Positions 6,263 to 37,234 of a stretch of DNA of 37,234 nt are shown here, in pieces. The position numbers and the translations under genes were made by a program. The notes under the pieces are model-generated. The model saw only the letters and a list, made by a program, of their open reading frames with translations. It ran no database searches and was not told the DNA's origin. The DNA comes from Perkinsus olseni (taxonomy: Eukaryota), in contig JABANN010000342.1 of the NCBI GenBank assembly GCA_013115125.1, positions 1-37,234 on the forward strand, written 5' to 3'. Each line of letters opens with the position of its first letter. The first letter of the stretch is position 1.

Positions 6263-6372
6263 GCACTGGTTTTCTGAGATTCTTCAAGGTGACCGTCTTA
6301 CCCGTGCCATCATCGCGTTTTTTCATTCTCCTCATCCATTTGACTTGTCGATCAGTTGTTTTTTTGACAAAA

Positions 6373-8334: not shown

Positions 8335-8724
8335 CGACCCTGTTGTACATTGGCTCTTTAGTTTTCTGATACACCCAAACCTTCGTGTCTGTTGTTTGAC
8401 TGCAAGGCAACTTCGGTATTCCATTTAGTCCAGGTTTTTTGCCTCGTAGTAGTTGTTGTCTTGCGAATCAAGCTGAATGCTTCTTTTGTCACCCCTCCAA
8501 TGTGTCGGTTAGAACAGTCTCTGAAGGCTTTTGTTAGTCAAAGACGGTCGGAGAATGGGGAGATTCGGCGGTGGCTAACGGGACATTTTTTGTGTCGATG
8601 TGCATGCGTGCAAGGTCGTCGCTGTAGTCGGGAGCTGACTGAGTTAGAAAAGAACCTTCGTAGCAATTGGGTGGGACATCACTGAGACTGGCATAGTGGT
8701 AAGTTCTTCCTTTCATCGTTTCTC

Positions 8725-14012: not shown

Positions 14013-14263
14013 GGGCCGCTATGCCAGAGGGGCTGGNNNNNNNNNNNNNNNNNNNNNNNNNNNNNNNNNNNNNNNNNNNNNNNNNNNNNNNNNNNNNNNN
14101 NNNNNNNNNNNNNNNNNNNNNNNNNNNNNNNNNNGGACGTAGTCATCTACTGCATGGGCCCGCTGTGCCAAAGGGGCTGGACGTAGTCATCTACTGCATG
14201 GGCCCGCTGTGCCAAAGGGGCTGGACGTAGTCATCTACTGCATGGGCCCGCTATGCCTAATGG
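14013..14263. repeat. 44-bp minisatellite spanning an assembly gap (N run 14037-14134)
   Basis: Unit ggacgtagtcatctactgcatgggcccgctgtgccaaaggggct occurs twice plus a partial copy after the gap, and a partial unit lies before the gap. Confidence 0.9.
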
Positions 14264-14431
14264 CCCAGAAGCATACTTAAGTATGATTTTCTCCTCGACC
14301 ACGGCGAATGAGCAATCACCGCCGGCTATTGGCCGCCTTTCAAAATTGCGATAAATCTCACATCGATTGGTGCCCCCTATGCAGCCGAACTCGGAAGTTG
14401 TCCCAGCGAAATCGGCTCCGAGCGATTTTCG

Positions 14432-16070: not shown

Positions 16071-17052
16071 TTGAGCAGGACTCCGTCTTCCTCTAACGAT
16101 GTAGTTGTAATGTACTTTGTCAGCGACGGTGCTGTTACTCCCATCCATCGCAGTGGGTCGATGAGTGATGGTTGTTCAAGTGGCACTTGGCAAGTGCATT
16201 GGCTTTGCCTTTTTTGAAATGTGCCCTGATGTCATCTATGATTTATAAACTGTGTTCGTTGTGATCACTTCTATTGTGTTCTGGTCCAATCACACCTTGT
16301 CATACCAGAACTGGGCTGTTAGAATCGGCATGGCTTCTCCATGACCGGTTGCAGCTGAGCGTACAAGTTGCCGGTCGGACCGGCGACTTGGACGAGTTCC
16401 CACCAGCAGTGGTGAGAACTTGTGCGTCTGCGTGCTAGTGTACGCAGGCACATGGCGAAGAACTAGGATCCTAACAACACCTTATGTATTGTCGAACTTG
16501 GTATGTAGATGGAAATATCGGAAGAGCTCGTATTCGTATGATATTAATATCGACGATACGTGCAGAAAGGTGCACTAAGTCATGGATTGCTCGTTATTAA
16601 GGACAGTTTCAATCGATAAGTGCAGAAATATGAAATTGCCGTTTGTGTATTGGTGTATTTGTATCTTACGCATTACCCTTATTGTGATGTACTGTAGCCG
16701 TGATGTAGTATTCTTCGCCATCTTCGAGCAGCCTTCTCGCCAGGTGAAGGATAGCCAGTATAGGAGTACAGCTGCGGGCTCGAAATTGTTGTCTGATATT
16801 GTATTATCGTCTAAATTAATAGAGATTTAATGGGTTTATTTTTTTCTATCAGAGCACTTTATCAGGTCTATGTTCCTACATGCAGACTGTTTGATGTTTC
16901 TGAAATAAGTGGTTAATAGAGGCCTCGTTCGGATAATGATAGAGGTATCTCGATTTTCCTAGACGGCATCCCTTTTTCCTATTAAAGCCGGGTCACGCTT
17001 GAAGGCTGTCTCACGTCTTCTATGCAGTTGAGGGCTCGTCCTGAATCGTACT

Positions 17053-17965
17053 ATGATCAACCCAAAATCACCATTCGTCAGTCTGCTGTTGCTTCTCTTC
17101 GCCGCAACGCACGGTTCTGCTACGACACTTGAACGCAGACCTCGCGGACCCGCGATTCAACCAGTTCGAGATGACATCCCTTCCGGTATTCACAGTTCGA
17201 GTTTGCCTGTACACTCTGGGCTTGGCAGTATCACAGCGCTTAGTCTGGGCGTGGGGCCTTCCGGCTATGCATGCGCGCTGAACTTGACTTTCTTTGGCCA
17301 ATTCTCCCCTATGTCTTTCAGATCGCCGCTTTATCATCTCGATGCCCTGGTCTGAGATTTCGTCAACCTTAGTGCTGCTACTTTTCGCGTTTTTGTACTC
17401 GTCAAATCTCGAATTTAATTTCGTCGGAAACTGGTAGACTCCGAGAGAGAGGTATCAATAGGGTCCTTCTGTGTTCGAGAAATGCATCCACCAGTAGGGA
17501 ACCAGAACTGGTGCTTTACTTAGATGCTGTCCGCGGGCGACGTAGTCAGTATGTAGAGTTCAACTTGCCGGTGGGGCTCGGCCATGGCGCTCTTCATACC
17601 AATGGAGACGGGGAGGGCTCCGATGGTCAGCCGGTCAGGAAGCGCCCGAGATTGACGCGTGTTAGTGGCAAAGCTATTAAAGACGGACAATACTCTGGTT
17701 TTCCACCGTTATGGGTGTGGAAACCGGCGAGGATGGACGTCAACATGTTGTACTCACATCGACCACTGACGACCTGGAGATGATTATCATCGGAGATGCC
17801 TTGTTGATTCCGGCTGATGACTATCTTACCACCGGCTTCTTCAAGCTGGGCGAAGCAGCGTATCCGGAACTTCGGGTGCGGCCGGATGGAAGGGATACGG
17901 TTATTTTGAGTGGCCTCGGGCATGATAGAAGGTTGATATTGGAAGCCGGGGCGCAGCTCCGATAG
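17053..17965 (+). pseudogene. Decayed paralog of the 15048-16070 secreted protein
   Basis: Homologous peptide blocks are split over ORFs 17053-17355, 17511-17783 and 17711-17965 by stops and frameshifts. Confidence 0.8.
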
Positions 17966-18092
17966 CAGCTTTCCTTATACATCGTGCTGTAAATGATATA
18001 ATCGCCACGTCTCGCACCACTGAGGGCTGCCATGCCAATATTACACTATAGTGGTCTTGAAAAAACTCTTCTCGTCATCAGCTGCGCCGGTC
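17960..18092. repeat. Dispersed repeat R, copy 2
   Basis: agctttccttatacatcgt is identical to copy 1, and similarity continues to cagctgc. Confidence 0.8.
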
Positions 18093-18613
18093 TTGTTAGT
18101 ATGAAATGTCGAATGTTCAGCTCTAGTTAAACAGAGCTCCCTTTTTGATGGAGATGTTACTGTCAACCTCGTACTCAGCTGTTTCGTGGGTGCCCGAGTC
18201 GCCCAGGGATAATCGACTTCTTCATACCTTCTCCGCAGTGGCTTCAGTGTAGATACCGTTATCTTCTCTTTATGCTATCGATTCCCGATTGAAACTGTCC
18301 TCAATAACGAGCAATACATGACTTAGTTATCACGTCATCCTGATGTCTTCATGCCTTCTCTTGATGTTATCACGACAGTCACTACCGGATAGTGCATGAT
18401 GCTCGTGAAGCTAGGATGAGGTTATTCTTGTCATGCTTGCGATGTTTATTTTATCAGTTACTCGAAACGATCTTTGGTTGGGTTCTAACAGTATCAATCA
18501 CCGTCGGTTTATCATTCGACCATTCTTTCGTAACAAGGTCGCGAGCGTTGAAGCTAATGATCGTTATTACGACCCACCCTTGTGGTTTGGAGTGAATGCT
18601 TCTCAGTTCATTG

Positions 18614-21380
18614 ATGAAGACAGGTGATGCTTCTGACTCCTCAGTAGCGACTAAAGTGATTGCCATTGACAACGGCGGAGGTCTGCTAAAGGCGGGGTTG
18701 GTGGACTCTGAGCACGAAGAGGGAGCTCTCCTCTATCCCGAAATTGTCATACCGAACGCTGTGGCACGAGCTCGACGCGGTGGGAAGGCCGGGAAGAATA
18801 AAGTGCTCGTCGGAAAGGAGATCATGGCGTGCCCGGAGTGAGTCACCGGGGAGTAGCTGATTCGGCATTGACCGGGCATTAGATTGGACAATACGACGGG
18901 AGTCGTTCACTATTGCTCTTGAGTTGTGGTAACATCTACGCAAGCTAGCAAGGTGCTCCGTAGAGGACTGTCCCGAGTGGAATTACAGAGCGAAACTGTC
19001 GCTTGTGTGCGACATCTCCTCGAATCGGGCTGCATCAGGTATACCATGACAAGACCCTCTCACAAGGGAATCGTTATTGACTGGGAGACGCAGAAGATTT
19101 TATGGGATGGGGTACTGCACGGCGGCCGACGACATCTTCCTGGGCTGCTCTCGAAGGTGATAGCGGGTTGAGAGTGCTCGAGTTCACTGTCGTTATAGAA
19201 CTACTCGGCCGCGACCGGCCGGGCTGGAAACTCGAAATCGTACATCAGGGATCGATCTCCTCCTATTAGAACCCGCTGTATGGTCGTGGTGTATTCGTTG
19301 TGCATCTTGTGTGATTCCTTCGATCGAGCATTTGTGAGTATCTCTCAGGGGTCTGACCTGTCCGACGTGACGGTCATCGTCTCCCAGCCGCTCTTCTGTC
19401 CTGTCATGGTCACCCGCGTCGGCATGCAAGTAGGTCGCGTCCAATATCTCGCCTCAGACCCAACGTCTCAGGTCCTCTTCGAAGACTTCGGCTTCGCTCG
19501 GGCAGTATTCGTTGACTCCCCGCTGTGCCTCCAGTTCAGTGAGAGTATAACATCACAGTTCGGCGAAGATGAGTGGAAGAACCCCTGCGGACTAATCGTG
19601 GACGCCGGCTTCAGCGGCTGTCGGGCGGTGCCTGTGTAGTGCTTGGGTGGAAGTGAAGCTCAAACAGTGAAGTTCATTCGTATTTTGCGATCCAGCTTAT
19701 CGGTGTAGATCTGGTCGTACAGTAGCTGACTGAGCAGCAGCGGATGGAATTATAGGAGTAGTATCTTTTGTTTAAGGTCGTACATCTAGTTACAGGAGTA
19801 CAATAGATTCAGAAAGGGGACGAAGAATTCAATTCGCACGCTTAAGGTTGATTCGGAAATCCTTCGTGCCTTGGACGTGGCTAGGGTTGTGCCCACGCGG
19901 TCGTTCAGGATGCGTGCGAGCATCAGGTACAACACGTACCCTCTCGAACGCTGCGCTCAGAGGATGGACGTCGGGGGTAGAGTTATGACCAACTACCTAA
20001 AGGAAGCTATAGCGTAATCGCACGCATTCCGTCTGGGGCTCATTTATGAGTATGCGACGCGCGTTCAGATACAACAAAGTTGATCTTGATGATGCGCCGC
20101 TTCTCGTTGAGCATATCCGCGAAAACATGTGTTACTCCGCCCAGGACTTCGTCGCCGAGGTTGAAGCCTCTCGGACATGTCCTGGCGAGACCACTCGACG
20201 GTACATCTTGCCTGATCATTCTTCGACGTCCAGTCACCTGGGAAGAGTCGTTGATCCTCGGCTTGGAGAGGACGTTAGTTCTAAAGATTTCATTGATATG
20301 AATCATGAGCGGATGGTGGCTTGTGAGGCCTTATGGCAGCCTGGGTCTATTGGAATCCTGCAAGCTGGGTTGGCTGAGATGGCGGCGCGGGCCGTGATGA
20401 AAGCTCCTGTTGCAACGAGATCGGCAGTCGCTAAGAAAGTACGCTTGTCGTTTGATGGTTTGCAAGAGTTCGAAGTCCAAGTTGTGTTTGTCGGTTGAAT
20501 AAGTTACCCGATGCAGGATTCGAACCTACGACCATCTGCTCCGTAGGCAGACATTCTATCCAGCTGAACTAATCGGGCTCTGAGAATGGTCGCCATGTGT
20601 CCATCGTCGTCTACCCGTCAGGTTATTCTGGGAGGCGGCCTTTTCCTCATTCCCGGAGTCTTAGAGAGGTTCAAGGCGGAGTTGCAGTCTAATCTGCCCG
20701 TGGAGATCGCCAGCGAGGTCAAGTTCTTCGCTGAGGAGGATGGAAGATATGACCTGTCTGTTTGGAGGGGCCTCCACACTCTCGGTGAGCGCCTGCTGGC
20801 ATGTGCTCGGCCAAATTCTATCTCGTTGTGGATTCGCTTTTCGTCGCCAATTCCGTCGCTCACGTTTCCGTGGGGTCATCAGTTAGAGTGTTCAAACAGT
20901 GACCCCATGTGAAGATAGAAACTCTGATTCGGAGCGTCCTGAGTATCGACAGCTGTTAGCTGATCCGTGTGAGTCACTCAGGCTGCGAGGGTTACCTTCT
21001 GCATAATATTGGGACCATCGCCGTTCTCTCGTGGCTGTTGTCTAGGAATCCAGAGACTCGCTGCTCAGATGGTGTCGACCCAGGGTCGTGATGAAATGAA
21101 TTTTCTCGCAGGCCAAATTTTGACACTTTCGGACCGCCTATGGTAGTGCATACTCTCACGATGAGAGAGTTTTTCTACTTCAGGTTCCTCTGAGGAGGAC
21201 TTAGCGCATTTGGGGTTGTTCAACCGAGACACTTGGTTGGCTGCTGCCAAGAAGGCATCACCAAATGGTCATCCCACGGTAGAGCAGAGCGCGTCCACGC
21301 CGAAAGGAAGCTCTCGCCGAGGCTCCAAGAAAAGTCCTAGCCAGTCTAGTCGAAAGAGAAAACGTAAGAAAGAAGAGTGA
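18614..21380 (+). CDS. ARP6: Actin-related protein 6-like (nuclear Arp), about 8 exons
   Basis: Spliced blocks VIAIDNGGGLLKAG, IPNAVAR, RPSHKGIVIDWETQKILWD, LFEDFGF, GLIVDAGFS, RMDVGGRVMTNYLKE, IRENMCY, YILPD, ERMVACEALWQP..IGILQAGLAE, ILGGGLFLIPG..ERFKAEL, SVWRG. The last exon 21184-21380 has a basic tail (RKRKRKK). Confidence 0.85.
20505..20578 (-). tRNA. tRNA-Arg(ACG), antisense within Arp6 intron 20439-20621
   Basis: Reverse strand reads GCCCGAT TA GTTC AGCTGGATA GAAT G TCTGC CT-ACG-GA GCAGA TGGTC GTAGG TTCGAAT CCTGC ATCGGGT A. All four stems pair. Confidence 0.92.
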
Positions 21381-21529
21381 GTTTTCAACCCCCTCACTTG
21401 CGTTGAGTGCATCAACGGAACTTTCGGGATGAGTGGGGATTCGCCCAGAGCACCGTTATCTGGCAGGCCTCAGCCGGCTTCCACAAGCTCACTCGACCTC
21501 GTGCCGAGATTGCTAGGCAGTGTGCCATA

Positions 21530-21952
21530 ATGAGCTCCCCCTTCGCCTTCCTCCGGGAGTACTTCACGGATCTCATGCCCGATCCGAGCACCTGTATTGG
21601 GAGGTGCAACACGGCGTCTGATGTGCGGGAGTCTGAGAAATTCACCGACATATACTCCTACCGCTCGTGAGTGTCATCGGATGGGACGTCTTAGAGGGCT
21701 TAGGGAGTCCTCTCAAAGTTACTTTCTGATGCCTTTAGAGGCCTCATCCAAATGCCTCATACCACTCCTCGACGAAATCATGGTCCCCGAGACGCCGAGT
21801 GTCTCAGGTTCTGTCATAAGGCCTGTGCGGCGGACGAGAGCGAGGTTCGGGATATGCGAGGGTGTGAGGAGTTCTGTCTCAAACTGTGCTTCCGAGATAA
21901 CATCGTAGAGGACACTAACACTAATGTTAATTACGTGGTGCTGGAAAGGTGA
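21530..21952 (+). CDS. Small Cys-rich hypothetical protein (exons 21530-21666, 21739-21952)
   Basis: A GTGAGT...TTTAG intron joins the frames: MSSPFAFLREYF...CIGRC...YRSGLIQMPH...CLRFCHKAC...CEEFCLKLCF...VLER*. Confidence 0.65.
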
Positions 21953-21997
21953 CATATCCTAATGGCGTCCATGGACATGGGCCGCCATCGACTGCTA

Positions 21998-22160
21998 TTT
22001 CGATAGAAGCTTTCGTGCTGTCCATGGTACAAACGCCACGTCTCTCAGCACAAAGAGCTGTCCACACGATAACCACTATCGTAATTTACATGGCTGGCGA
22101 CGGCAGGATTTCTGAAGACCACTATGGTCTTCAGAACTCTCTCCGTCGCCAGCTGCTGCG
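21998..22160. repeat. Dispersed repeat R, copy 3, with an internal inverted-duplication insertion
   Basis: cgccacgtctctcagcacaaag and tggtcttcagaactct...cagctgctgc match copies 1 and 2. There is an extra ~50 nt at 22072-22123. Confidence 0.75.
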
Positions 22161-23319
22161 GTATTTTCAGTGCAATGGTGCTGCTTCTGGATCCATTTCT
22201 AATCTTGCTGGACGCCTTTTCGATTGGCATTTCATCATACCGGTCGGGCACGGTTCTGCACTATCTCGTCGTAGTAGGTGTAGTTGTATAACACAACAAA
22301 AGTAGATTGGGCTCATAGTGACCGAGATAGAGCAGATAGAAATTGGAGTAAGGAGCGTGATTTTTCCTAGGAAAATTAAAAAAAATTTGTGATGTATTAT
22401 GATAAAATTTGTACCCTGTTCAAACTTCAGCCCTTAACTCCCTTTAGTTGACGAGAGACGATAAATTTTTGAATTAGCCTAAGAAAAATGCACGCTCCTT
22501 AGTTAAGAGCATGGGTTGATAACGCGAAGCTAGCATATACTCAGTTCGATTATACAGAGTACAGTTCTGGTCAGATCTCCCGGATCGCCAGAGAACTCGG
22601 CTAAGTGCATGGAAGTCTGCACGGCGGGCTGTGGGTGAGAGCTGTTGCTTCGATGAAGCTGTTGCTGAGCTTGGCGGCCGTGTTGCTGTAGGTTCCGCTT
22701 CTCGAAAGGAGGAAAGGAGGACAACGCTTGGCGATAGCAGCTCCAAGGACGACTCTCATGGGCGTTGCTGCTGCTACTGATGGTGTGTTTCTGTTTCATG
22801 ACCTTCTCGAAGCAGCTTTGTTAATTCATCGATACTGGTAGTGTTGTGAATTCGAAGATATAGGTAGAGGGTGTAGGAGAGGTGATAAGATTCGTTCAGC
22901 GGCTGATAGTAACACGCTTTGGATATGAAAAACAAGAGCAGTGCTCAGTACCGCCTGCTCGCAGACGGGCAAGCGGACCCTGCCAGGAGGAAGGAAAGCT
23001 CCTGAGTTCGTAATAACGCATCTGATATCGTCGTACAAGCATCTCCGGGGGTGATGAGCAAGTCGATAAGAGTCCTGTCCAGGAACGTCGGCGGGCTCGA
23101 AACAAACTGTCCTGGGGATCTTGTCAGTCCTGTGTCGTAGGCTGGTACTATTATACTGTATAAGATCCACCGAAAATAAGAAGAGCTTTCGGAATCGAAG
23201 AAATTTTGTTTCTGATCACACCGTAAGGGTCTCCTATATTCTCATGTATGCAGATCGTGGTCTACCGGCATGAGATCTATCAATGACATCTTGTTTATAG
23301 CATTCAGTAGTCCTACCAG

Positions 23320-24460
23320 GAGACCATGTCAAACGATGCCTCGCACGACGACAGAGATGCCAACGAGGAGCTAACTCGCATGATTGCTTCTAACAAGGAC
23401 GATTGCGTGGGTCGAGCTTGTCGTCTCGCTCCCTCGCCTGGAGAGCCTTTCGTCAGGCCGGCGGAATAGACCACCACCGTGACCCGTTCCTCACTGAGAG
23501 GTACATAACTGTCAAGGACGCTGAGCTGCTCCTGAATTGTTCATCCCGTGAAGAGGCTGAGGAAGTGAGATCTCTCGAGATGGTACCGTGCATAATCTCC
23601 GAAGGATTCCAGCACAAAAGATTCGACAATAAGTCTGAAAAAGAAAGAAGCACGAGGAAGTCTGTATAAGGGCCTGAGTTACAGCACGGGAATTTTCCCC
23701 TTGTCCGCTCATTTGGTGCATCGATCGAGCTATGAGAACAGCATAGTCAACGCACGGGGATAAGACGCATCTAAATTGAATAGATTAGTTGCTGTGCCTA
23801 GCTAACACTATTACAGTGCCACAGCTGAGCGGAGGACGAAAGCGATGTTTAGTACCCCGAGTACAGCTGATGTGGGGATACCGGTGTGAACTTGCATCGT
23901 ACAGTGGCTGGGCCCCATCCGGGCAGGTCGAGAAAAGGGAGCACGATTTGCCTCAGTTTGTGAAGGCCAGTACCAAGCTCATAGAACTCGATATCTCTTC
24001 CGATGATGTGGATGATGAGAATATCCATGCGACCTCGGCGGCGGTAGAGACAAGCTCAGCTTATCACCATTGACGGCGGACTTTCAGACTAGAGCGTCAT
24101 CCGGCTGGCCCAAGAGGGAATCGCAGGAAGGTCGCCGCTTAGCTTGTCTACTTGACTTCTACCTCATGTTCGCGAGGTGAGTTTGCAGCGAAGAACTTCC
24201 CGAAACCGATTGTAGAATGGCTGCTCCCCGAACAATCGCCATGCTGTTAACGCAAGGATTTTCCGAGACGGGCTGCTCGTGTACATGAGTTTAGTTGAGT
24301 TGAGTACCGGACGCTCAGTCTGAGTAGCGACTCGACTCTAGCCTACTAGCTTCTCGTTGCTGCGATCACTCTGGCTAGGTTCTGCCAGCAGGAGAACTTG
24401 ACTGGTGAGAAGGCCTCTACTCTGTTGTCCCTCATGAAGGAGGTGTACTCACAGGCAAGC
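23320..24460 (+). other. Possible exon fragments of an unidentified (possibly decayed) multi-exon gene
   Basis: Several open, AG-preceded blocks with protein-like composition (ETMSNDASHDD..., AGGIDHHRDPFLTERY..., VEKREHDLPQFVK..., ENLTGEKASTLL...). No complete model or domain recognised. Confidence 0.3.
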
Positions 24461-25367
24461 CACGCTCAGTTCCTCTACGTCGCATTCACAAGACGGCGTG
24501 GCTACGAGCAAGCCGTATTGGTATTACATCATAGTTCGCGTCAAGATCGCCAAGCTTCTCTGAGTGTTATTCTTCTAGCGCGGACCTAGTGCGCAAATCT
24601 GAGTGTCCGCCACTGATTATTTACAAGCAGTCGTCAGTCTCAATCGCCCGGGCAGGCTCAAGTTTCTGAGTCGCACTTTAACTCGACCCTCAGGCCATAC
24701 TGCATCGAATGGACGTCTCGACGGCGTTCTCCCTATTCAGAAGGCTCCTCTTGAAGCACTCAGTACAGAGACCGCCGTTCAGTATCAGAGTAGGCCTACG
24801 ATACGATCTGCCGTCCGTTGCTTTGTCGGCGTCAGGTCTTCACGCTCGAGGAGGTCAAGAAAATTACTGAATTCGCGATGAACACGTTCTTCACACATTA
24901 CAAACTTTACGTGTGAGCTCTCTTGGGGATCCCTGGAGTGTCTTCACAGTCGAGACGTGGTGTCAGACAGGTACATGAACATCCCACATCGTCATCTCGT
25001 AGTGCATAGTTCTCCAGCGGAAGACGGCGAAACAACGATGACACACGAGAAGGTTTTGCGGCAACAGGAGTGCTATGATGTGAGTTCCGTATCTCACGAT
25101 CGGTGAAGAGAACGACCGCGCTGCCATCCGAATTCAGTTTACCGAAGGGAAACCCGCTGACACAAGACTGCCTGATCGAGTGAAAGATGCGATTGACTTG
25201 TAAGTCAATCCCAGTCGGCTTTCTCGGATTGTGTGAGGATCGTCTAGTCGGGGCAGTCAACGGTGCACTTAGAGGAGTCAGAGCCTCGTGAGAGTGTGCA
25301 GCGCACATCGTGCATTCGTCCTTAAAGAAAATGTCATAGAAAGTGCGGCTGGAAGCTTGGACGTAGC

Positions 25368-25411
25368 TCGTAGCTACGAGTCGTAGCTACGAGTCGTAGC
25401 TACGAGTCGTA
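25368..25411. repeat. 13-bp tandem repeat (tcgtagctacgag) x3.4 built on a palindrome
   Basis: tcgtagctacga is self-complementary. Three exact units are followed by tcgta. Confidence 0.9.
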
Positions 25412-26880
25412 AGTGACTCGGCTGGTACGAGTCTACCTGCTAATGGAGTATCAGATACGCTAAGAAGATCATGCGAGAGTTTGACCGGAAGATGGAGGGT
25501 GAGCAGAACAAACGACTGGAGGGTGCAGAATCGGCATGAACTGGTGTCTTCTTCTGGAAGATCCACGGCAGAGTTCAATTCTTAGAGTTGGGGTACTTGA
25601 GTTTCCGTTGAATGTTTTGGCGGGTTTGACTTTCCTACTCGGTAATTCGAGATTCATGCCTAGATGAACCGTCGATCCTCGAGAGTTCACCACTCTGTGC
25701 CCCTCGATCTCTCGAAGTTGGACATCCCAGAATGATCAGCAAAGCATTATTACGTCACCTGAAGGGTAGAGGTCGGTAGGTGACATAAGCCAGCCTTCCT
25801 TGTAGAGTGTCCAATGGATCTGCACGTGCGCTCTCTTGTCGTAGGGAGTGTAGTTGCAGGAGTTCTCCTATTTGTTGCGGTCTACTGTAGAACGCAACAG
25901 GGGTAGATCGAGATCAAAGTAAACTTGATAGGCAGACAGAATGTAGAGTACTCGAGAGAATGGGAGTTGACAAGTAGAGATACATCATTTCTTGTGCAAG
26001 TTTGACAAGCGAATAAGCAAAAATGACAATGTTATACCCAAGTTTGACACTGAATATGCAAGTTGGGCGCAAGTCAACAACCACACGGGTATTGGTGGAT
26101 AGCTATTGGAAAGACGCTTCTTCCATCGGTGTGCTACGATGAACCGAAAGATTAATAGTTGAAGTGCTTACCCAGTTAAAACTGAGATTTTCCACCGAAT
26201 TTTAAGCCGTGTAGTCCAAAATTATTTGGCACATTTTTCAAGGGACCCTCAGAGACCTCGGCACCCATTAAGAGTTGTGGTCTGAAACTTCGGGGTTATA
26301 CTCAGTAGGGTACTAGGAAGTATCCCTGTACGTTTCGTCTCGTAACTCACACCAGTTGGAGCTAGCGACGGCAAAAATGCGATATTCCAAAATTCAAGCC
26401 AAACGGGCGGCAGTGGGTGGGTTAAAAAAAGTAGGCAGGAAGTGTACTCAACTAATAAACAAAGTCACACAGCATCACATCTAGGGGTCCGTTACCCCAT
26501 CACGGGCGTGGTGGAGAAGGAGACAGCGTGACGTCGTGCGCAGTGGATGAAGTAGACAGATTAGCTATGTTAGCTAGCTGCCCGCATTCGCGGCAAGTCA
26601 GCGCGCGGCCCTCTCTTTACTTGGCCTCCCGACTCCTCATGTCGAGTTCCGAAGTTAGAACTAAGGAGCGTGCATGAAAGTCACCATAACAGTAATGCCA
26701 TTATCGTGGTGGCATCGCCCAAGGTGACCCCAAAATTGAGTGCTCACGATGAAGCGACGGTTACTCCCCCGCGGGAAGCATCCCTACTGAGCAAAAAATG
26801 CGAATAAGCGCGCGGAACGGATTTCCTACAGGCTCGCCGAGAGGCGGGCTTGTAGAAAATTTTCCCCACGACAACCGGAA

Positions 26881-26941
26881 TTTTGCCACTTTTTGCCACT
26901 TTTTTGCCACTTTTTTGCCGCTTTTTGCCACTTTGCCACTT
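26881..26941. repeat. (T)nGCCAC tandem array, 6 units
   Basis: ttttgccac tttttgccac ttttttgccac ttttttgccgc tttttgccac tttgccac. Confidence 0.9.
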
Positions 26942-27989
26942 CCTCAGACATTTTTTTCGTTTGTCGGAACACCCTGCTTTATTTTTTCACGAAGGAAAAA
27001 TAGTGTAGATAAATAAAAGCAACCATCGAACGATTTTTTTCTACGGAAAAATAGCAGGTAAATGCAAATTCTGGAGAGAATCCCATTCGGACTATGCCGT
27101 AAGTCGTTGAGGATAAAACTATAGGGAATACGTGAATGGTTACTAAGCTGTTAACTTCGGGGCGGCCGCCGAGCCTTCGATGGCTGGGAACATTGTGGAC
27201 ACCAATTGTATGGAAGTGACTGATTATACTGTATGATATAATTTATATCGTCAAACATCCCAGTGGTGGATGCAAGAATGGTGGTCGAGCGCCATAGGTG
27301 AAGGAGTACGTACTTGCAGTAGAGTAAAAAGACAGCTTGGGCATCTTCCATGCTGATGACTTTTGCGTATAAGTGCCTCGTGGTTACCATGCGTTGCTAC
27401 TAGCAACATGCTAGTGTTCAATCTTATTATCGTTAGCGAAGATAAAGCTGGAGATAAATTTCAGCTCGAGGCACCGTGGCCGTGAACAGACTTCTTGGGA
27501 AAGTTAAACTCTAGCTAACTTGCGATTTTTCGAGCGCACTAGGGAAGTTCCGCATTGTTGTTTCCTATGAGCTCCAGAGAAGATCTCGCAGTACTCAGTT
27601 TCCCTTGGATACCCACTCTGACAAGAAGGGGTGTGTATCACCTTTTGCAGTGGTCCACTAACGCAACAACCTGTTCATCCTGCAGCTACTCTAGCAAAAA
27701 CAGTCTGGCTGGTCCAACTAGAGTTTAGTTCGACTAGCTCTTGAGCAGGCAAGGAAGGGAATTTCCGCACGAAATTCAATTTATCGACCCTGCTCTCACT
27801 GCCTGCTTGGTTATGAAATCGTGAAATTCCATTTGGTCTGCTCAAGTGACAGACAAATACGGTGGTGCAACCACGGCCTTACGGAATTATTCCGGACATA
27901 ATATCAACGTGATATTCCATCGGAATATCACGTTGATATTATGTCGACCTCACTCGAATCACTGCGCCAGCCTGATATTCTCCACTGTA

Positions 27990-28705
27990 ATGGGGGTTAA
28001 CTTCCTTCGTCTGCTCTCCATGCCGATTCTGATATCGGGCATGGCCCTACGCAAGGCTCCCACGACCAAGGTAGAGCGGCAACCCCTCTCTTCAGCGAAG
28101 TCACTTGCAGGGTGTCGGCTATGGCCGCGTATCTTGTACTTTTAGGTCGGATCTCTAGTCAAAAGTGCCTTGGCCAAGCAGGATGTATATCGTCCAGAGG
28201 CATACACATGTTTTATTGAATACCCTCTCATTAATATTACGATATCTGTAAGCCGCTTAGATGTCTGGGATAATTACATCGAAGCTGCGACGTTCAAAGA
28301 AAACGAGACCTTCAACCTTAAACTCAGGTAAGTTCACTGCTTCCTGCATTCGGCTCGTTCCTATGTTACTCATTTATTCTCAGACCCGCCCGCGGCTATA
28401 CTGTACAACACAGAAGATACTTGGACGGCCCCTACCAAGGTGGTTATATCGAGAAAATATATTTCCCTAAGATTTCAAAGGAAGAATCTGTCAAAGACCC
28501 GTTCGACACGACCCTTAGAGAAGTTTGGCCCGTCCTCTTCAACAGCACCACAAATAGCACATGCCTGGAAGTGGCCAAATATATCGAAGATCATCCTTGT
28601 GGTAAATATAAAAATGATAACGAAACGGTGTGGGTTAGAGAGTATGTTTCTGAGAGCCTCGTGTTGTATCCGGTTCCTCTCGTAGAGTTACCCTATCTCA
28701 GATAG
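27990..28705 (+). CDS. Lineage-specific predicted secreted glycoprotein (exons 27990-28070, 28146-28327, 28384-28705)
   Basis: Two canonical introns give one open frame: MGVNFLRLLSMPILISGMALRK...YTCFIEY...LDGPYQGG...TCLEVAKYIEDHP...WVREYV. Signal-like N-terminus and five NxT sequons. Confidence 0.75.
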
Positions 28706-30000
28706 GTTTTCTCATGGTACTGACAAATGTGTATACATAGCTCGTGATTATGATGTATCGCTGTGTGTGGTGTTTTTGTACTTGTGTGTTCCAACTGGAT
28801 CTTGTGTGAAAGTTGTCGCCTTACAACGGGGTACGCATCGTGAATCCAAGATCACACCTACAAGGCACCGTTCGGTCTATCTGAAAGCGGAATCCATCCC
28901 CTCGAGCAGCTCCAACTCAAGGCACACTTCAATGAGCACCAAGAGCCAAATCTCGAACTGCGCTACGAGAGGCTCACCCAAGGATTGCAATAAAGCTGGC
29001 TAATGCGCTACGGAACCACTGTTGCAGCTTTATTTATTTATTTATTTGCAATTTTCCTTATTTTTGCATGTTTTCGAATAGTTGCCAATTCGCAGCTATA
29101 TTGATCCTCCAGTTGTTGCGCTGTTGTCGCGTCGGCTGTCGCTCGCCACGCAATGTATTGTGATACTGTCTACTGCTACAGTAGGCTCAAGTGATTTACC
29201 ATTGATTTGTTCATACGTTATTGAGATTCACTCTCCTATATCTGGGTATTGTGTTCCCTGGATTACAAGCGCCTTGGATAAGGCCTTTCTGTCGAATGAG
29301 TCGCTCGCCTGTCAGGCGACGCCTGACCTTGACTGTTGTGACTCGAGGGCGGCTGCCCGGGCCTCGGGGATCACGGCGTGTCGCCTTGCGTCTCAGACGA
29401 ATCGCCTGGATAATAGCGTAGTGATGTCAGCATTAATCGCGCCCCCCTCGGGTGATGGGCCGTTGTGAAGATCGTTGTGTCATTGCTGTCCCTATGGAGT
29501 CGCTCCCCCTTGTGCTACGCTAAGATATCTATCTTCGCGTTAGTACTGTAATTGTACTTGTAATTAGAATCAGGGTGAGTAAGTGAGAATCAGGCCAACG
29601 GTTGGCCGCTAACCAAGTCTGTCTCGTGTTAACTCAATAAGCGGGATTGCCCACCAACACTCAACATGCCGTAAGGGGTATAGTCCACCGGGACTCCAGA
29701 GCGATAGTACGCGAATGCTCTATAAAATTGATGCGTGGATGATCCAGTCGGTTATGACGAGCTCGTTCGCAGTTAGGTCCCGAGATCGATTCTCGGTTCC
29801 AATATTGCCTTGACAGTTGGCTAACGGTTTTCGTCGGAGTAATACATCGGCATACTTGGGAAGAATGCCATAGCATATAAGGTTACCTCATCCTGTAGCA
29901 ATTGGAGTGCTAAGCACCCCGGTGCTTTAGACACCGTGTTCGCAGACCTAACTCTGCGAATTATTTTCTCGATGGAGCATTTCAGTAGGCTGGCTTTAGC

Positions 30001-30097
30001 AAGCTCGGTTCGAGCTTCGAACCTGCGCGGATCCGCTTCGGAGGGTCTTAGCCTAAGACTCTTAGGTCAACCCGCTTAACCACTCGGGTTATCACTC
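30001..30097 (-). pseudogene. tRNA-Leu(TAA)-like pseudogene interrupted by inverted micro-duplications
   Basis: Reverse strand has CCCGAGTGGTTAAG (Leu/Ser-type D-arm), GTTGA CC-TAA-GA, a long variable region and CCGCGCAGGTTCGAA (T-arm). The acceptor stem is not recoverable. Confidence 0.6.
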
Positions 30098-32920
30098 GCT
30101 AGCGCAGTGATGTATAGCTATTGTTGGCGAAGCCATGTGGGGAACTGGCATCCAACTAGCGATCCGAGGCGATTGATATACAACTGGCGAATCGGCCGTG
30201 GCTATGCCCACCTGGCACATGAATGACGTAATGTGGCCATTTTGAAGAATTCAAGCGAAAAACATGATCGAATTTTAGTGATCAATGCGACTAGATGGGG
30301 AACGAGCTTGAGTGAATGAGTGAGTGAGTGTCGAGATGCCTTACTTAGCAGCATCCACATCATCCAAGTATGGTCAAACGGCTGCAGTCACATCGCATCT
30401 CAATTGTCTGAGGAGTTCAACATCGATGTCCTTTATGATAATACCTCACCGGAGTTCTCAAGTTTTCGAGGCGTCTCCGTTCTATCTCGACAATTTCCTT
30501 CCACAACGTCTGAGCTCTGATGGGGTTAAACTTCCAGACGTTGTTGGTAACCGCTCCCAGCGAAAATGAGAACTTCTCATCCTCATTTTCTTCTCTTTTT
30601 TCGCCCCCTCATTCAGCAACTGAGCTCACACCTAAATGAGGAGTCCTCATTGAGAAGTGAGCTGAGTTGCTAACCCCAGGTAGGAAATCTCTTTCGCCGG
30701 ACCCGCCCAGAATGCCCTTGATTTTACAGGCGCCGTCTCAGACGGAATGGGCCATTGGGACGGAGGGAAATTGACAGACTGGAGTCCAGTCACTGGACTA
30801 CTTTCTTCGCGATGACTTCACGAGCCCAACACTGTCAAAAAGTATGCGTGCACTCGGAGGCTTAGCCAAACCCAGTATTAAGTCAGCACAGGCCCGGGTT
30901 GAGTCAGATTGACGTAATCAACGAGTTATAAGTTATACGATGAAACGCTACGATCATACTAGCGTCGCAGCTTGAGACTTGAGCCTCAAGTAGTGCAAAC
31001 TGCGCGTCATAGACGACGGACTGACACAATCGGGGACAGACTAGAGGCGATACGCCACAAGGCGTGCTGTGCGAACATGGTCAATCTAATGGATTCCACA
31101 ACTTGCAATCAATACTCGAGGACGGCAGACGTAAAGGCTGCTACTACTGCTACTTACCCCTGTTATGACAGCTCGGTCGGTAATGTTCCTTAAGCTTAAG
31201 ATATCAGCGTAAGCTAGGGTGCAATCAGTATTACTGATTCAGAATCATACGGTTGATAAGTTGAGTTCCAAGTAATTACCATTTTCCTATGATTAATGAT
31301 CTCGCGATAACCTAGGGGACCGGGTAACCCCGACGTGGCTGAGCCATGATGGCTCCGAAGCAAGGACATTCTACGTCTACATCTCCTGAAGTATTGTCCA
31401 CTGTGTGTGACTCCTTGCATGGATGGTTAACCAAAACGCCAGATTCCGCAAGGAGCCTTCAAGATGCTCAGGCTGAGATGAAGGCCATAGTAGTCCACTA
31501 CTGATATACTGAGATAGGCCACTACCATCCCTGGATACGGCGATGTCAACGCAACAGTGACCCCCCAAACGGCTGCGTGCTGCAGCAGTTGAGCTGCTCA
31601 ACTTGAGCAATAATGGCCGACCTTCACTATGGGGCAGCTAGAGGTGTCAGTATCGCGACGATGCTAGCTCCTTAGTGAATTCCAGCAACCTGCAATGCCG
31701 GCGAGGCCACGGGCCTCAGGCTAGCGGCATACGCGCGCCAAGAGTGCGCCTGGCTGCAGGATGCTGGTTGTAAGTCGGCCCAGCTTAGCTTGCGATGGGC
31801 TTTCACTGCTGCGGTGACATTGGAAACACAAAACCTCGACGGGTGCCATCCAGAACAATGCTGGATGTGCTCACCGAGCAATGCTCGGGTTTCAGGTTTG
31901 GTGTTTTCCTTCCCGCACTCCCGTCTTCTTTGGGATTTTACAGCTCAGTATTAGACTGGTCAAATTATGCGGCTTGAAGGTACTCGGCGGGCTGTGTGCA
32001 GTAGTATCTGAAGCAGTGGCGCCTCTGCCGCGTGCTAGCTGTGCCGGCCCGGAGTAGCTCATTGACTTCATTTCAAAACACAACATCCCGGCTCAAGACG
32101 GCCCATCATGGGTGTGATTATTAAATCACTCATGCGCGTGTTTCAAAGATTGCGCACGAATGAATCCTTGTGTACCTGATCCGCCCGCAATTCCAATCTC
32201 GAGAACCCTTCGAACACATTGGCTTGATCCACTGGAGTTTCACCGGTGAAACGTGTAAAAAAAGTTTTGCGCGTAAGACAAAGGACCCGAAAAACCTTGC
32301 TATTCAAGCTCAGCAAATCGATTAGAAGAACATAATCCTAACTTAGGAATTCCAAGCATAGACAATTATACAGGGAGACAGTCCGAAGGGAACGCAAGCC
32401 CCGATCGACGGGAAACTTTAGCCTCTGGACGAAGCTGAGGAAGTCCCATGGAGGAGCAAAAGTAGTCCAAGCGAGCTCCATACACAACGTAGTGGCGTAC
32501 ACAAGCGTGAGACGAGACGTGCCAGCGAGCATTGTGAGAGTTCTCCAGGAACAAATTTCGTAGCGCGACACACTGGAGGCGCAGGGAGTCAGCACGACAA
32601 CCACCGAATGCTGTTGGCGACACAACGCAGCACATTCACGGGGGCGGAGTCAAAAGATGGTATACATGGTAACCGACAATTGCGGAGCGAGCGAAGCGAG
32701 CGGAGCATATACTGTCACTTCTGCGCTTTTTTGTGCGTTCGTTCGTTCGTTCGTTCAAATTATTTCTCCGCGACTATGTCGATTCAACTCGCGAGACACA
32801 TACCACTCGAAAGCACGTGGTTTGTGTATTCTATAAAAAATACGAAATCGCTCCCATCCCCGTTCCACCAAGCAAAACCGTCGTGGATCGTTGTAGACAA
32901 CCCGAAAAAATACGGAAAAA

Positions 32921-33003
32921 GTCCGTGCTGGGGTTCGAACCCGAGACTTGTGCCGAGCTCCGCTTTTTTCGTTACGAAGACCTAGTGTCAGACCAACATT
33001 GGC
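32921..33003 (-). repeat. tRNA-derived/B-box-containing segment within a probable non-autonomous element
   Basis: Reverse strand reads ...tggtctga...tctcGGGTTCGAACCCcagcacggac. No full cloverleaf. Confidence 0.35.
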
Positions 33004-33170
33004 ATATTTTCAGCATGCTAGAACGACGAATCGTTCGAGGCATGTTGCAGGGGAAAGGCCTTTCTGGGAGACCGTCAACTGTTCGACTCTCCCCGACAAC
33101 TTCCCCGAGCCCCGTCCCCATTTGCTCGCATACATTCTGACATCGCAAGTCCGGGACCTGAGGTCCCTAC

Positions 33171-33480
33171 TTGCGATCGATGGATGGGTCTACTCGCTCC
33201 TATCTCACTCCTGTCATCGAAAGCGAATCGAACTTCTTGCTAGTGTGTCCTTCTCCAACATTCACCGAATTCTTTAGATGTCTGCTCGCTACTCATGTCT
33301 CCTGCACACACCTGTCACGTTGTCCCTCTGATGCTCCACTCGGGCAACGGATCCCAGTACTCGAGTTTGGCTATGGCTGACTTCATTGAGTCGTGGGACG
33401 CTATCCATCTCTTCACTCCCCGAGGATCTTCGCCGTTCAACGGGAGAGCCGAGAGTGTCCATATGTACTTGAATGAATAC
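33171..33480 (+). mobile_element. Degenerate retroviral-type integrase (rve) core of an LTR retrotransposon
   Basis: PLMLHSGNGSQYSSLAMADFIESWDAIHLFTPRGSSPFNGRAESVH matches the SDNG...NG.AE integrase pattern, with the catalytic D read as G. The upstream YL..VIES.SNF block is in another frame. Confidence 0.7.
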
Positions 33481-33720
33481 CTCCTGACACCTCGTCGAGG
33501 TGACCTCGAGGAGGGGGGCAGGTTATGGAGCGCCGTCGGCTCGCACGGTTGTCGCTGCCGACTGGCGCGGTAATCGATTTGATGTGCGCGTATTCCCCCC
33601 TCGTGAGGCCTTATCACTTCCGTTAGACACTGATATCATTGGCTCGAATCAACTCGGTGTTACGCTAGTACGGGACACTCGCACGAGTTCTAGCAGTGAA
33701 TTCTTGATTTCTTCGAAGGG

Positions 33721-34182
33721 ATGCTTCAGCCGAGTCGCCTTATGGCCATGATTACTTTCGCGGTTATCTGCTCGAAGGCAAAGCCGCCTCCGCCGAGAGG
33801 AAGATACTTCAACCAGGTCGTCCCTGATAATGTGTGTATCGAGGTCAACTGGGTCGACGATCCTTGCCGTCCAGAGGAGGACGTGGCTCTGCTGCTCCTT
33901 TGTGATGGCCGTCGAGTTGATTCGGTTCCTATGGAAGTGCAGACCAAGGGATTCAACATCTTCGAGATCGCTCAAACTAGTAGGGAGGAGTACGACGACT
34001 TCTTGCATGTTTCCGACATGAATTGCCACTCATATCCCGTGGATGACGGTCATCTGCATGAATTCATTTACAACGAGAAGGTGAATACCATCGCAGTTAA
34101 GCTACGTGATGGAGTCGTGACTCTGAAGAGCGGCGCCTGTCCCCAAGAACTTGGCGGTCCAGCACTGCTGGTCCAGCAGTAA
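33721..34182 (+). CDS. Small lineage-specific predicted secreted protein
   Basis: 153-aa ATG-initiated ORF with a hydrophobic N-terminus, then PPRGRY, spaced Cys residues and L..G.C near the end. No recognised domain. Confidence 0.7.
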   Translation: MLQPSRLMAMITFAVICSKAKPPPPRGRYFNQVVPDNVCIEVNWVDDPCRPEEDVALLLLCDGRRVDSVPMEVQTKGFNIFEIAQTSREEYDDFLHVSDMNCHSYPVDDGHLHEFIYNEKVNTIAVKLRDGVVTLKSGACPQELGGPALLVQQ

Positions 34183-34999
34183 CTCAAACAGAATCCCTCC
34201 TCTACCGAGCTGGGTAACAGTTGCTTTGTCCGTCAGTTGCTTGGTTTTCGACAATTTGGAAGGCTCTGCTCCAGCAGTGCTGGATCAGCATCAACCAAAT
34301 ACAACCATTCCCTCAAGCAAGCTCGTGAAGTTTGCCCGAAGCGTTCGGGCCGAAGGAGCATCGTCTCATCCCGATCGATTTCATAGGTGCAACTACCATG
34401 CCGGAATCAATGTGGGCGAAAGTTTCACATTGGTTCCGGAACAACGTGTTGCTGACAGCAACTTGCTGTGAATATGAGCCGCATCAGTTCGGAACTGAAG
34501 GGCTGGCCCAGCGCTCACAGGTGTTCCCCCGACAACTCATGTACAATCACGTGACGACGTCACGGAGACGTATCGACCGTCCGATACAGTTACCCAACAC
34601 AGCACCACCGCTCTCAGGATGTCCTGACTACGGCATCCTTGTCGTCGTCGAGCCAGGCATCAGTGACTGATGATCAGTCGCCTCAGACGGGTAGTCAGGT
34701 TCCGTCCCCAAACCCCTACACACAACGGCCCTGAAGGAGGCCGTTTACTGCGAAGGAATGGCCTGGCACCGATCCAGGCACATTCGTCTGACTTACACGC
34801 AGGAAACCACTAACACAGAGCCGTGCCGTAAGAGCAACGACTCCTAGGTTGGGTTCTAGTATTACCGCGCTACACAACCCACACGAAGATGGCCTTGAAA
34901 AAAGCCAAGCAACGCGGAACCTACTGGAGGTTCACCTTATCTGCGTGTGTGCGCCCCTGACACAATGCCGGCTTTCCGGGGCCCCCCTCGACAGCCAGC

Positions 35000-35200
35000 G
35001 ACAACTACGTCGCCAACGAGCTGCCGAGTTGGCCAAGCTAGCAGAGCTCCCTCCGAACCAGTCGGACACATGAGCCTGCACCTGCTTGGGGAAGAGAAGA
35101 CCACAGAGTCTGTGGCCCAGACAGTCTCCGCCATGGCATACTTCAAGTCAGGACGTCGTCCAAGGCGACCGCGTTGTCATCGTGAACTCGCACCAGCCTC
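35000..35200 (+). mobile_element. Possible decayed integrase zinc-binding (H2C2) region
   Basis: H...HLLGEEKTTESV..., W....QDV.. and ..CHR appear across frames, resembling H..G..KT...W.....DV...C..C. Confidence 0.35.
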
Positions 35201-35571
35201 ATCAGCTCGTCGACGGCTACGAGTCGTGGACGGGTCCAGCTGTAAGTCGTCAGAAACCGCAGGGAGAAGAATCAGTGCCGAAGGACACCATTGCTCCTGT
35301 AAGACGTTGCGAAGCCGTGTTTCTCTCCAATATCCTGTCACACTAATTCGAACTTGCGTTTTTTTAAATTTCTCGAAAACGAAGTTGTATTTTTTTAATC
35401 GATCTTGAAAATTCCATTTTGAAAATGCGTTTTCAAGCGTTTTAAAATGAAGTCTTCTCATTTTAGGTTTCGAAAAGAGTATTTAAATTGAGGTCCCATC
35501 CTTTTAACATGAGGAAAAATTCCCACTATCATTTGAAGAGCGCTCAGCACCGCATGTCACCAGCGCTTCTG

Positions 35572-35645
35572 GCTCTGGTGGCTCAATCGGATAGAGCGTT
35601 AGACTTCTAATCCAAAAGTTGCGGGCTGAAGTCCCGCCCACAGTA
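35572..35645 (+). pseudogene. tRNA-Arg(TCT) probable pseudogene
   Basis: GCTCTGG TG GCTC AATCGGATA GAGC G TTAGA CT-TCT-AA TCCAA AAGTT GCGGG CTGAAGT CCCGC CCACAGT A. Mismatches in the acceptor and anticodon stems, and the T-loop lacks TTC. Confidence 0.8.
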
Positions 35646-35699
35646 TATGTGGTGGCACCTCAGATCGGAACTGTCTGTTCCTAGGACAGCCTTCCGTAT

Positions 35700-37234
35700 T
35701 TATACGCTATCGCTGATCGGTGATACGCCGGGCGAGGACGACGTCAGTAATGACATAGTCCTCGATACGCTCGAGGTGCCAAAGGACAGCTGGTCCGTCC
35801 AGCTTACTGCAGCCCTCGAAGCTGGTGTATTCCCCCAAGAGTGGAAACACTCGAAGGGGGTGTTTATCCATAAAAGTGGCCGGGATCCAGCTCGCCCCAA
35901 TGGCTGGCGTCCCATCTGTTTGGTCACTTCTGGTAGCAAGCTGTTCGAGCGATTAATTCTCGAACGGCTCGCTTCGTGCCCGCAGATCCGTGACCGCTTG
36001 GAGTCTCCAGTGATCCACGGTTTCTGTAAGGGCAAATCGGTCGACACTGCCGCCCTGCGCATCATTAACGCGTTCAGGGCTGGCAGGAAGAGGAGTAAAC
36101 GCGCACCAGTAGCTCTGATCCAGCTCGATGTGCAAAATGCGTTTCCCTCGGTCAAGCACAGCCACATTCTGGCTACCCTGGCTCGATACGACGTGCCACG
36201 ATATCTTATCGACATCGTCGAGAGCTATCTCGAGGGACAGAGTGTGGCTGCTACCTACGGCAGCGATGAGGCCACGGTGGGTTTGGAAAGAGGGGTGCCT
36301 CAAGGCAGTGCCTTAGGCCCCTTCCTGTTTTTGCTGAGCACCCTACCACTGGTCGACGCGTTTTCGGGTATGGAGGAAAAAGGCGTAAGCCTCACCCTCT
36401 ACGCGGACGACACGACGGTGGTGGTGTCCGCCGGTACTGGCCCGTCGCTGGTTAAAAGGTGGCGGTCAGCAGAGGCTCTGCTGCTGGCCTGGGCTGCCGA
36501 CGCTGGAGTGTCCTACGAGCCGGCCAAGAGCCAGGCGCTCCTGCCTAGGACCATCGGGGACGATATTTTGTCCCTTGATGGAACACCCGTTGACATCGTC
36601 AAGGTTGTCCGGGTGCTTGGTGTTTTGATCGATCGGCGCTTATCGTTCCAACACCACATCAAGGTTAAATGTGCCGAAGCCAAAGCCAAGTTAGGCAGGC
36701 TGAGGCACCTGGGCTGGGCACGTGCTGGGATCACAGGCAAGAAAGTGATCAAAACCTATAATCCGGGTGTGGGATCCAGCCGGGCTGGTCCAGCCCGGCT
36801 GGACTCCAGCCCCTCCTTCCATGCTGCGACAGCGTTTTCTGACTCCAGCCGCTGGAGTCAGTCACAGCCAAGTCTGCCCTGCTGCAGGTCTCGGCTATAG
36901 TGGCGAGGATAGCCCTCCAAGCTCCACGGAACAGCTCCAACGCGGCACTCTGCGTCGCGGCTGGTATCTTGCCAGCAGACTTGGAGATCGGTAGAATCGC
37001 GGCCACCAGACTCGCTGCGCTTGGGTGCATTACGACGCTGGACCGAACTCTCTCGGTCAAGGGCTTGAAGGTACATGAGAGTCGCGATGGCGGTGATAAA
37101 GTGCAGCGCTGGAGGGCTTTGCCCACTCAACCTTGGCACCCCTGGGTCTCGACTACCATCGCGGAACGTGAGGAGGCCAAGAGCTACGCACTCGAGGCTC
37201 TCCGAACCAAGAATGCCATTTTCACGGATGGCTC
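35700..37234 (+). mobile_element. 5'-truncated non-LTR retrotransposon (RT + RNase H), frameshifted, runs off window
   Basis: TPGED, FPQEWK, WRPICL, KLFER, IHGF, LDVQNAF, GVPQGSALGPFLF, YADD, VLGVLID..LSF. After a frameshift at ~36770-36890 come RIALQAPRNSSNAALCVAAGILP and the terminal AIFTDGS (RNase H first motif). Confidence 0.93.

Follow-up and report, generated by a model that had tools for sequence, protein, structure and literature searches.

A recurrent 22-nt fold-back scar in a Perkinsus olseni contig, most likely a hAT-type excision footprint with one dominant 7+8+7 product

Which process leaves the same small fold-back at many places in a genome, each time built from a different 8-mer? 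The question is raised by a 37,234-nt stretch of DNA from Perkinsus olseni (contig JABANN010000342.1 of assembly GCA_013115125.1, positions 1 to 37,234 of the forward strand; hereafter the window, meaning the whole stretch analysed), in which a 22-nt motif, here termed a scar, recurs. In each scar the first seven bases of an 8-mer X (x1-7) are followed by the reverse complement of X and then by its last seven bases (x2-8). A preliminary description of the sequence listed ten such sites and proposed that they were left behind when hAT transposons were excised through hairpin intermediates. The analysis presented here indicates that the scars are real and are most likely excision footprints of hAT type (Ac/Ds-like), with a dominant 7+8+7 product previously unseen within the literature searched; the element itself was not found.

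All ten sites listed earlier were recovered as real scars at their positions, the five described as perfect being perfect and the five others having exactly one mismatch. As a census the list was an under-count, since a scan of the full window gives eight perfect copies, ten copies with one mismatch column and 14 with two. In dinucleotide-preserving shuffles (n=40) the corresponding means were 0, 0 and 0.68, and the two-mismatch hits are taken as decayed scars. The scars are given below, none with an assigned strand; X1 and X5 denote sequencing runs described further on, and zero-difference contigs are contigs of these runs identical to the window.

16176 to 16197: scar with one mismatch (at x1); no other perfect or one-mismatch scar lies in the gene-rich part
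27393 to 27414: scar with one mismatch, X=GTTGCTAG, within zero-difference contigs of X1 and X5
29305 to 29326: perfect scar, X=TCGCCTGA, absent from the preliminary list
29593 to 29614: scar with one internal mismatch (motif scan)
30045 to 30066: perfect scar, X=GTCTTAGG, within zero-difference contigs of X1 and X5
30777 to 30798: perfect scar, X=GACTGGAC, within zero-difference contigs of X1 and X5
31334 to 31355: scar with one mismatch (motif scan)
31588 to 31609: perfect scar, X=GTTGAGCA, in a multi-copy stretch (motif scan)
33146 to 33167: scar with one mismatch, X=CAGGTCCC; single 8-mer in a paralogous contig
33488 to 33509: perfect scar, X=CACCTCGA, inside an integrase-like (rve) frame; single 8-mer in high-depth paralogues
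34158 to 34179: scar with one mismatch, its second centre being x1 and not the complement of x1 (motif scan)
34335 to 34356: scar with one mismatch (motif scan)
34448 to 34469: perfect scar, X=GTTGCTGT, absent from the preliminary list, within zero-difference contigs of X1 and X5
34550 to 34571: scar with one mismatch (motif scan)
34658 to 34679: perfect scar, X=CATCAGTC (motif scan)
35101 to 35122: scar with one mismatch (motif scan)
36775 to 36861: complex multi-event locus in a reverse-transcriptase gene, which includes the one-mismatch scar at 36775 and the perfect scar at 36782 (sequence, tblastn and paralogue contigs)
27228 to 34291: ten of the 14 two-mismatch hits, at 27228, 28685, 29387, 30629/30636 (overlapping), 30970, 31224, 31703, 31867 and 34270

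The remaining four two-mismatch hits lie outside 27228-34291, at 11335, 18332, 18373 and 25569.

The geometry of the motif is exact. A sharp peak at k=8, where k is the length of X, had been predicted, and this peak was found: perfect matches number eight at k=8 and zero at k=5-7 and k=9-13, and with mismatches permitted k=6, 7, 9 and 10 remain at the background level of the same shuffles. Among 54 geometries, combining k=6-11 with forward copies short of 0, 1 or 2 bases, a single one is enriched, namely k=8 with each forward copy minus one base (eight matches, all others at most one). No match in the window was found for X+revcomp(X)+X, the flush form (k=8, a=b=0). Zero-loop palindromes are weakly above the shuffles, and the window contains 44 hairpins whose loop is 1 nt and whose stem is at least 7 nt, versus about 2 in the shuffles. 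When the six core bases alone were fixed, 11 sites were found, and in all 11 the base at the first centre is the complement of x8; the second centre is the complement of x1 in eight of them, x1 itself in two and another base in one.

The scars recur in other sequencing data, in line with a test proposed in the preliminary description, although at the level of contigs and not of raw reads. Logan contigs of four runs were aligned on positions 17235-37234: X1 (study P1), X5 (study P2) and X6, which represent three samples from two studies, and the more distant X7. The samples that match best may include the source sample of the window itself, and the comparison covers the best-supported differences, with 116 further indels and 65 further joints outside this set. 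Contigs of X1 and X5 with zero differences cover 26605-29160, 29619-30973 or 29619-31040, and about 33405-34628, and carry unchanged the scars at 27393, 30045, 30777, 33488, 34158, 34448 and 34550. Contigs of X6 span the scars at 27393 (8 other letters, 4 gaps) and 30777 (7 other letters, 26 gaps), as well as those at 30045 (contig 29624-30526) and 34158 (1 other letter each), the positions of these differences not being among those listed. In X7, the 33488 scar is present in a contig over 33241-33691 that differs from the window at 18 of 451 letters (4%) and has no gaps. The 31588 scar is covered in X7 by a high-depth contig (31539-31941) with 5 gap letters overall; the gaps listed near the scar lie at 31561 (1 letter) and 31859 (3 letters), so that a gap of 14 nt could not fit at the scar.

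The state expected before scarring, a single 8-mer, was named as a test in the preliminary description and was found in paralogues. In high-depth paralogue contigs of X1 and X6, a joint from 33488 to 33503 omits exactly 14 nt and leaves a single CACCTCGA. At a loose end of an X5 contig at 33161, unscarred sequence runs straight into x2-8 of the 33146 scar. The reciprocal case was also observed, in which paralogues carry 14-nt insertions behind 36612 and 36115, where the window has a single 8-mer; placed in the window sequence, these insertions produce one perfect scar and one one-mismatch scar. The single-8-mer state is thus seen at two window scars and two reciprocal places among the differences listed, in paralogues that are not proven alleles. 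Copies of repeats have acquired different scars, each adding 14 nt at a single 8-mer.

Two other alternative forms of the region were inspected and are not readable as filled or empty sites. In contigs of X5, X6 and X7, the roughly 96 nt at 30558-30653 are exchanged for 11-13 other letters (30557 joined to 30653/4), and this segment is bounded by two palindromes with a 7-8-nt stem, a 1-nt loop and the common words ATGAG/CTCAT. In an X6 contig of single-copy depth, 32263 is joined to 34243 via 34 other letters that include a small palindrome, and this joint may represent a haplotype that lacks about 2 kb (32264-34242), including the integrase-like fragment.

The scars are unevenly distributed. 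Of the 18 scars that are perfect or have one mismatch, 17 fall within 27393-36803 (9411 nt) and one within 1-27000; with decayed copies counted there are about 30 scars in 10 kb, and six are packed inside 34158-34679 (522 bp). The region 1-27000 contains two GST genes, three tandem carboxylesterase genes and other frames. In 27000-37234, the sole intact gene is a reverse-transcriptase frame (35611-36900), which shares 63-65% overall identity with two Perkinsus olseni proteins, a tblastn segment at 36846-37232 having 91% identity to the second of these; an integrase-like fragment lies at 33244-33570. Contig depth shows the region to be a patchwork of single-copy and multi-copy stretches. Almost no scars are found in the two youngest-looking stretches, one a repeat of very high depth (about 32.6-33.2 kb) and the other the open frame for reverse transcriptase (35.6-36.8 kb). 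This pattern is as would be expected of neutral insertions that accrue over time and are purged from genes by selection.

Other properties of the scar-rich region were also recorded. No RNA datasets matching 27235-37234 were listed, and no protein relatives were found for 33700-34179. Frame changes among the open reading frames (ORFs) at 33.2-35.4 kb follow no simple pattern of +14 steps, these ORFs being without homologues and maybe spurious. As a small control, two distant metagenome loci retrieved with the reverse-transcriptase ORF as query (25-26% identity, not perkinsid) are free of scars, perfect or with one mismatch, over their 18.1 kb. Directly upstream of the scar-rich region, 26881-26934 consists of 10-11-nt repeats of TTTTGCCAC(T).

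The favoured explanation, excision of a hAT-type element, would account for the motif as follows. The agent would be a cut-and-paste DNA transposon that creates an 8-bp target-site duplication and leaves covalently closed hairpins with a one-base offset on the flanking DNA, the 22-nt motifs being the healed donor sites of the departed element; such chemistry is known from the hAT elements Ac/Ds, Tam3 and Hermes. Because a single duplex copy of X does not suffice for two hairpins, X would have to be duplicated beforehand, and hence an insertion would be needed. After excision, x1-7 of the left flank would continue into the bottom strand at x8', with the mirror image of this at x1' on the right flank. 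Both hairpins would then be opened far from the tip, at a distance of at least 8 nt (20 nt in one case), unfolding into long palindromic tails. The unfolded 3' tails would end in x8'..x1' and x1..x8, and the complete inverted 8-mers could pair over 8 nt; filling in of seven bases per strand and ligation of the ends would yield x1-7 + revcomp(X) + x2-8, with a net gain of 14 nt. Two sufficiently long tails share no microhomology longer than the 8-mer, which would explain the dominance of one product, and a hairpin opened nearer the tip would lead to the use of a shorter microhomology. The scars themselves would be functionless, accumulating in neutral DNA such as dead retroelements and decaying by point mutation; a function for the hairpins was considered and rejected, because X is different at every scar and a consensus is absent.

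The proposed use of shorter microhomologies can be examined with a generalised two-hairpin model, in which x1-7 is followed by p bases of the left palindromic run starting from x8', q bases of the right run leading to x1', and x2-8, with overlap of the two runs allowed. An exact search of the window with this model returned the eight standard scars, which have an 8-nt junction, and one non-standard site:

6037 to 6072 (no strand assigned): variant scar, X=GATGGTAG, an exact fit to the two-hairpin model, upstream of the first carboxylesterase gene

This site consists of GATGGTA, a 20-nt left run, a 5-nt right run, a 3-nt overlap between the runs, and ATGGTAG (j=22, p=20, q=5), and 28 of its 28 constrained bases match the model. 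It contains two separate odd palindromes, whose centres are the complements of the bases that would abut the element. Ten shuffles gave no model hits with a junction of at least 5 nt, and the 7+8+7 product accounts for eight of the nine exact footprints with such junctions, a palindromic tandem repeat at 25367 being excluded. That repeat (25367-25405) is a 13-nt unit in three tandem copies, contains a 12-nt even palindrome (TCGTAGCTACGA) and is not a 7+8+7 scar.

Two further palindromic or repeated sequences may be set beside the model. At 7045-7061 and 9409-9425, the same place in both intact carboxylesterase copies, the sequence ATCGGTG-CCT-TCGGTGG fits a short in-frame (+9 nt) footprint of the model, at a frequency within chance (0.2 expected per window at this length of junction). 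At 27895-27945 there is a perfect palindrome with 24-nt arms and a 3-nt loop, with a smaller palindrome (6-nt stem, 1-nt loop) upstream; a long hairpin footprint from one side, altered by a point change at its tip, is a possible reading.

Comparison with known systems places the scars closest to Ac/Ds. In this hAT system, hairpins form on the flanking DNA and palindromic insertions are centred on a base complementary to the one that adjoins the element (PMC5873905, PMC1978519). Footprints have been described in Saccharomyces cerevisiae and Arabidopsis (Weil & Kunze 2000, Yu et al. 2004 and Lazarow et al. 2012, via PMC5873905); in the yeast footprints, the maximal palindrome arm is 20 nt, arms of at least 3 nt occur in 47% and microhomology in 88-89% (PMC5873905, citing Lazarow 2012 and Yu 2004). 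The scars share with Ac/Ds footprints, as reported in these sources, the 8-bp duplication, P-nucleotide insertions on a complement centre, long arms and microhomology at the joint. By contrast, the Ac/Ds footprints reported there are heterogeneous, mostly short and derived from experimental excision of one known element, whereas here one natural product dominates, with both tails at least 8 nt long, annealed over the inverted duplication, and 14 nt gained. The shorter classical footprints (palindromes of 1-3 nt), which dominate in plants, are here indistinguishable from chance. Three features that mark hAT excision at the level of the footprint are observed: a duplication of 8 bp, centres that obey the offset rule and, in paralogues, an ancestral state with a single 8-mer. 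Target duplications of other hairpin-forming transposons can be of another length, that of Transib being 5 bp. The P nucleotides of V(D)J coding joints, and Transib and MULE excision, are alike in that a flank hairpin formed by transesterification is opened off the tip to give palindromic additions; in contrast to the scars, these hairpins are flush and would give even palindromes (PMC5499845), and the flush form is the one without matches here. A relation to introners of the Amoebophrya type was rejected, those introners being introns with direct repeats of 3-5 nt.

The scars reveal the geometry of the agent (an 8-bp duplication and a one-base offset) and not its protein, and with a hAT domain in none of the 193 window ORFs scanned, the same hairpin chemistry and repair could have been set in motion by a different enzyme, whether another DDE enzyme, possibly undescribed or domesticated, or another superfamily with 8-bp staggered insertion. 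Candidates exist, since MULEs likewise form flank hairpins and have duplications of 8-10 bp (PMC5499845), and Perkinsus marinus is reported to contain Dada elements, distant relatives of hAT, P and MuDR (PMC3706591). However, hairpins of the MULE Muta1 contain both flank strands in full (43+43 = 86 nt; PMC5499845), and would thus predict the flush product; Dada elements make duplications of 6-7 bp (PMC3706591), yet k=6 and k=7 are at background; and the one-base offset is documented for hAT (PMC5873905, PMC1978519). A non-hAT agent is accordingly regarded as unlikely, although it is the foremost competitor of the hAT reading.

Explanations that dispense with a mobile element fare less well. 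Short template switches during replication, or insertions templated at breaks in the manner of polymerase theta, likewise place inverted copies of adjacent sequence beside it. The forward-reverse-forward triplication is the known product of a double template switch in the short-template-switch literature, and both the very high local density and the absence of an element would be easier to understand for an endogenous mutational process. Yet such insertions vary in length and have microhomology at the switch points, whereas the scars have a fixed 8-nt unit with two complement centres, k=8 alone being enriched, and no microhomology is on offer at the switch points that the sequences would imply. 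From the same sequences, the turn with a 1-nt loop would not come from intramolecular snap-back priming. The variant site at 6037-6072 is the most pointed case, its second palindrome being centred on the complement of x1; a simple double template switch would need a return point that the unscarred sequence lacks, and a single switch fails to predict the second centre. An origin in replication or repair errors is distinctly improbable. An artefact of sequencing, amplification or assembly is more remote still and is given very little credence. Amplification methods are known to make fold-back chimeras, and the evidence in contigs, with the best matches possibly from the source sample, leaves some room for this view. 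Against it, contigs from three samples and two studies show scars at identical places and at full local depth (the X6 differences being unplaced), and the 33488 scar recurs in the diverged X7 contig; in addition, decayed copies with one or two point mutations exist, the scars are strongly enriched in non-coding or dead DNA, and the set of scars differs between paralogues.

The hAT reading is therefore retained as the most likely one, and it is upheld by the k=8 peak, the single-8-mer state and the scars in independent contigs, together with the exact fit of the two-hairpin model to the variant site where the flush alternative has no matches. The part of the earlier proposal that did not materialise is the element, since neither a hAT transposase, nor an element with an 8-bp duplication, nor a filled allele was found in the window. 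Several observations weigh against the reading. No domain of hAT or any other DNA transposase was detected in the window ORFs, and a search for filled sites (identical 8-mers 40-8000 nt apart with inverted termini matching at least 11 of 14) found none in the window. No report of hAT elements in Perkinsus was found in the literature searched, supplements lying outside that search. A logo of the target sites displays no consensus among the scars; some hAT elements prefer nTnnnnAn, and no such consensus is visible here. With 17 scars in 9.4 kb, the density is extreme if it stems from transposon traffic, and would require local hopping or a hot spot. At the second centre, x1 stands in place of its complement at 2 of 11 window sites and in one paralogue scar, which can be derived from opening on the other strand at the price of an extra assumption. 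Junctions of 0-4 nt, which correspond to the classical short footprints, are indistinguishable from chance in 37 kb, so that the stereotyped outcome may partly mirror detectability. Finally, several events are superimposed at the complex locus of the reverse-transcriptase gene, which the simple model does not resolve.

At this locus, 36775-36811 forms a chain of forward, reverse, forward, reverse and forward copies that includes the scars at 36775 and 36782; it is followed by 27 nt of ancestral coding sequence and then by a palindrome with an 11-nt stem and a 1-nt loop (36839-36861). The tblastn match of the reverse-transcriptase gene stops at 36771 and restarts at 36846/36852 in a different frame, with 80 nt in the place of 18 residues of the homologue. 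The middle 27 nt encode SFHAATAF, matching LSHAVAAW of the homologue P0002, and paralogue contigs skip 36759-36850.

Within the window, the search for the element also produced a candidate that was ruled out. Inverted repeats of 42 nt (16574-16615 and 18286-18327, 95% complementary) enclose 1670 nt, and were excluded as a filled site because a target duplication is lacking; the region belongs to a duplication of local extent (14.4-16.1 kb versus 17.4-18.1 kb). Self-comparison of the window by BLAST returned gene-family repeats only.

Footprints of transposon excision have usually been described at single experimental loci, and they vary in form. Here, one exact product recurs about 30 times within 10 kb of natural genomic sequence, and its pattern suffices to find it even when the element is not known. 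No account of the 7+8+7 product or of its abundance in a natural genome was found in the literature, a search that did not cover the tables of Yu 2004 and Lazarow 2012, which may contain the product. If the pattern holds genome-wide, past cut-and-paste events could be counted and dated after the departure of the element, and the scars would be recognised in the genome of a mollusc parasite as a strong source, not listed before, of small palindromes and of insertions that shift the reading frame, as well as a natural read-out of hairpin opening and end joining in a little-studied alveolate. The heavy turnover proposed in the preliminary description would go further, and it may be tentatively suggested, with somewhat more doubt than confidence, that this perkinsid lineage harbours, or once harboured, a hAT-like system so active and local, and a hairpin repair so uniform, that fold-backs of +14 nt are a leading class of indel in neutral DNA. 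The genome would then preserve, independently of sequence, a datable fossil record of excisions in the tens of thousands, and the uniform outcome would suggest an unusual set of double-strand-break repair functions, for example one with no tip opening of the Artemis type or with weak classical end joining. With k adjusted to the length of the duplication, such a scan could be applied to any genome.

The gene-rich part of the window has further features of its own. The three tandem carboxylesterase genes occupy 6289-13416 with a period of about 2364-2724 nt; the first two copies are open frames of 681 and 659 amino acids, and the third is broken over three frames (11286-11948, 11809-12840 and 12844-13413), and is therefore either a pseudogene or intron-containing. 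At 14037-14266, a gap of 98 N is followed immediately by three tandem repeats of 44 nt, and the gap thus probably lies inside a longer tandem array. Weak matches to the actin family occur in two frames (E 2e-6 and 7e-3) at 20013-20909, in a multi-copy stretch, perhaps representing an actin-related pseudogene or an intron-bearing gene.

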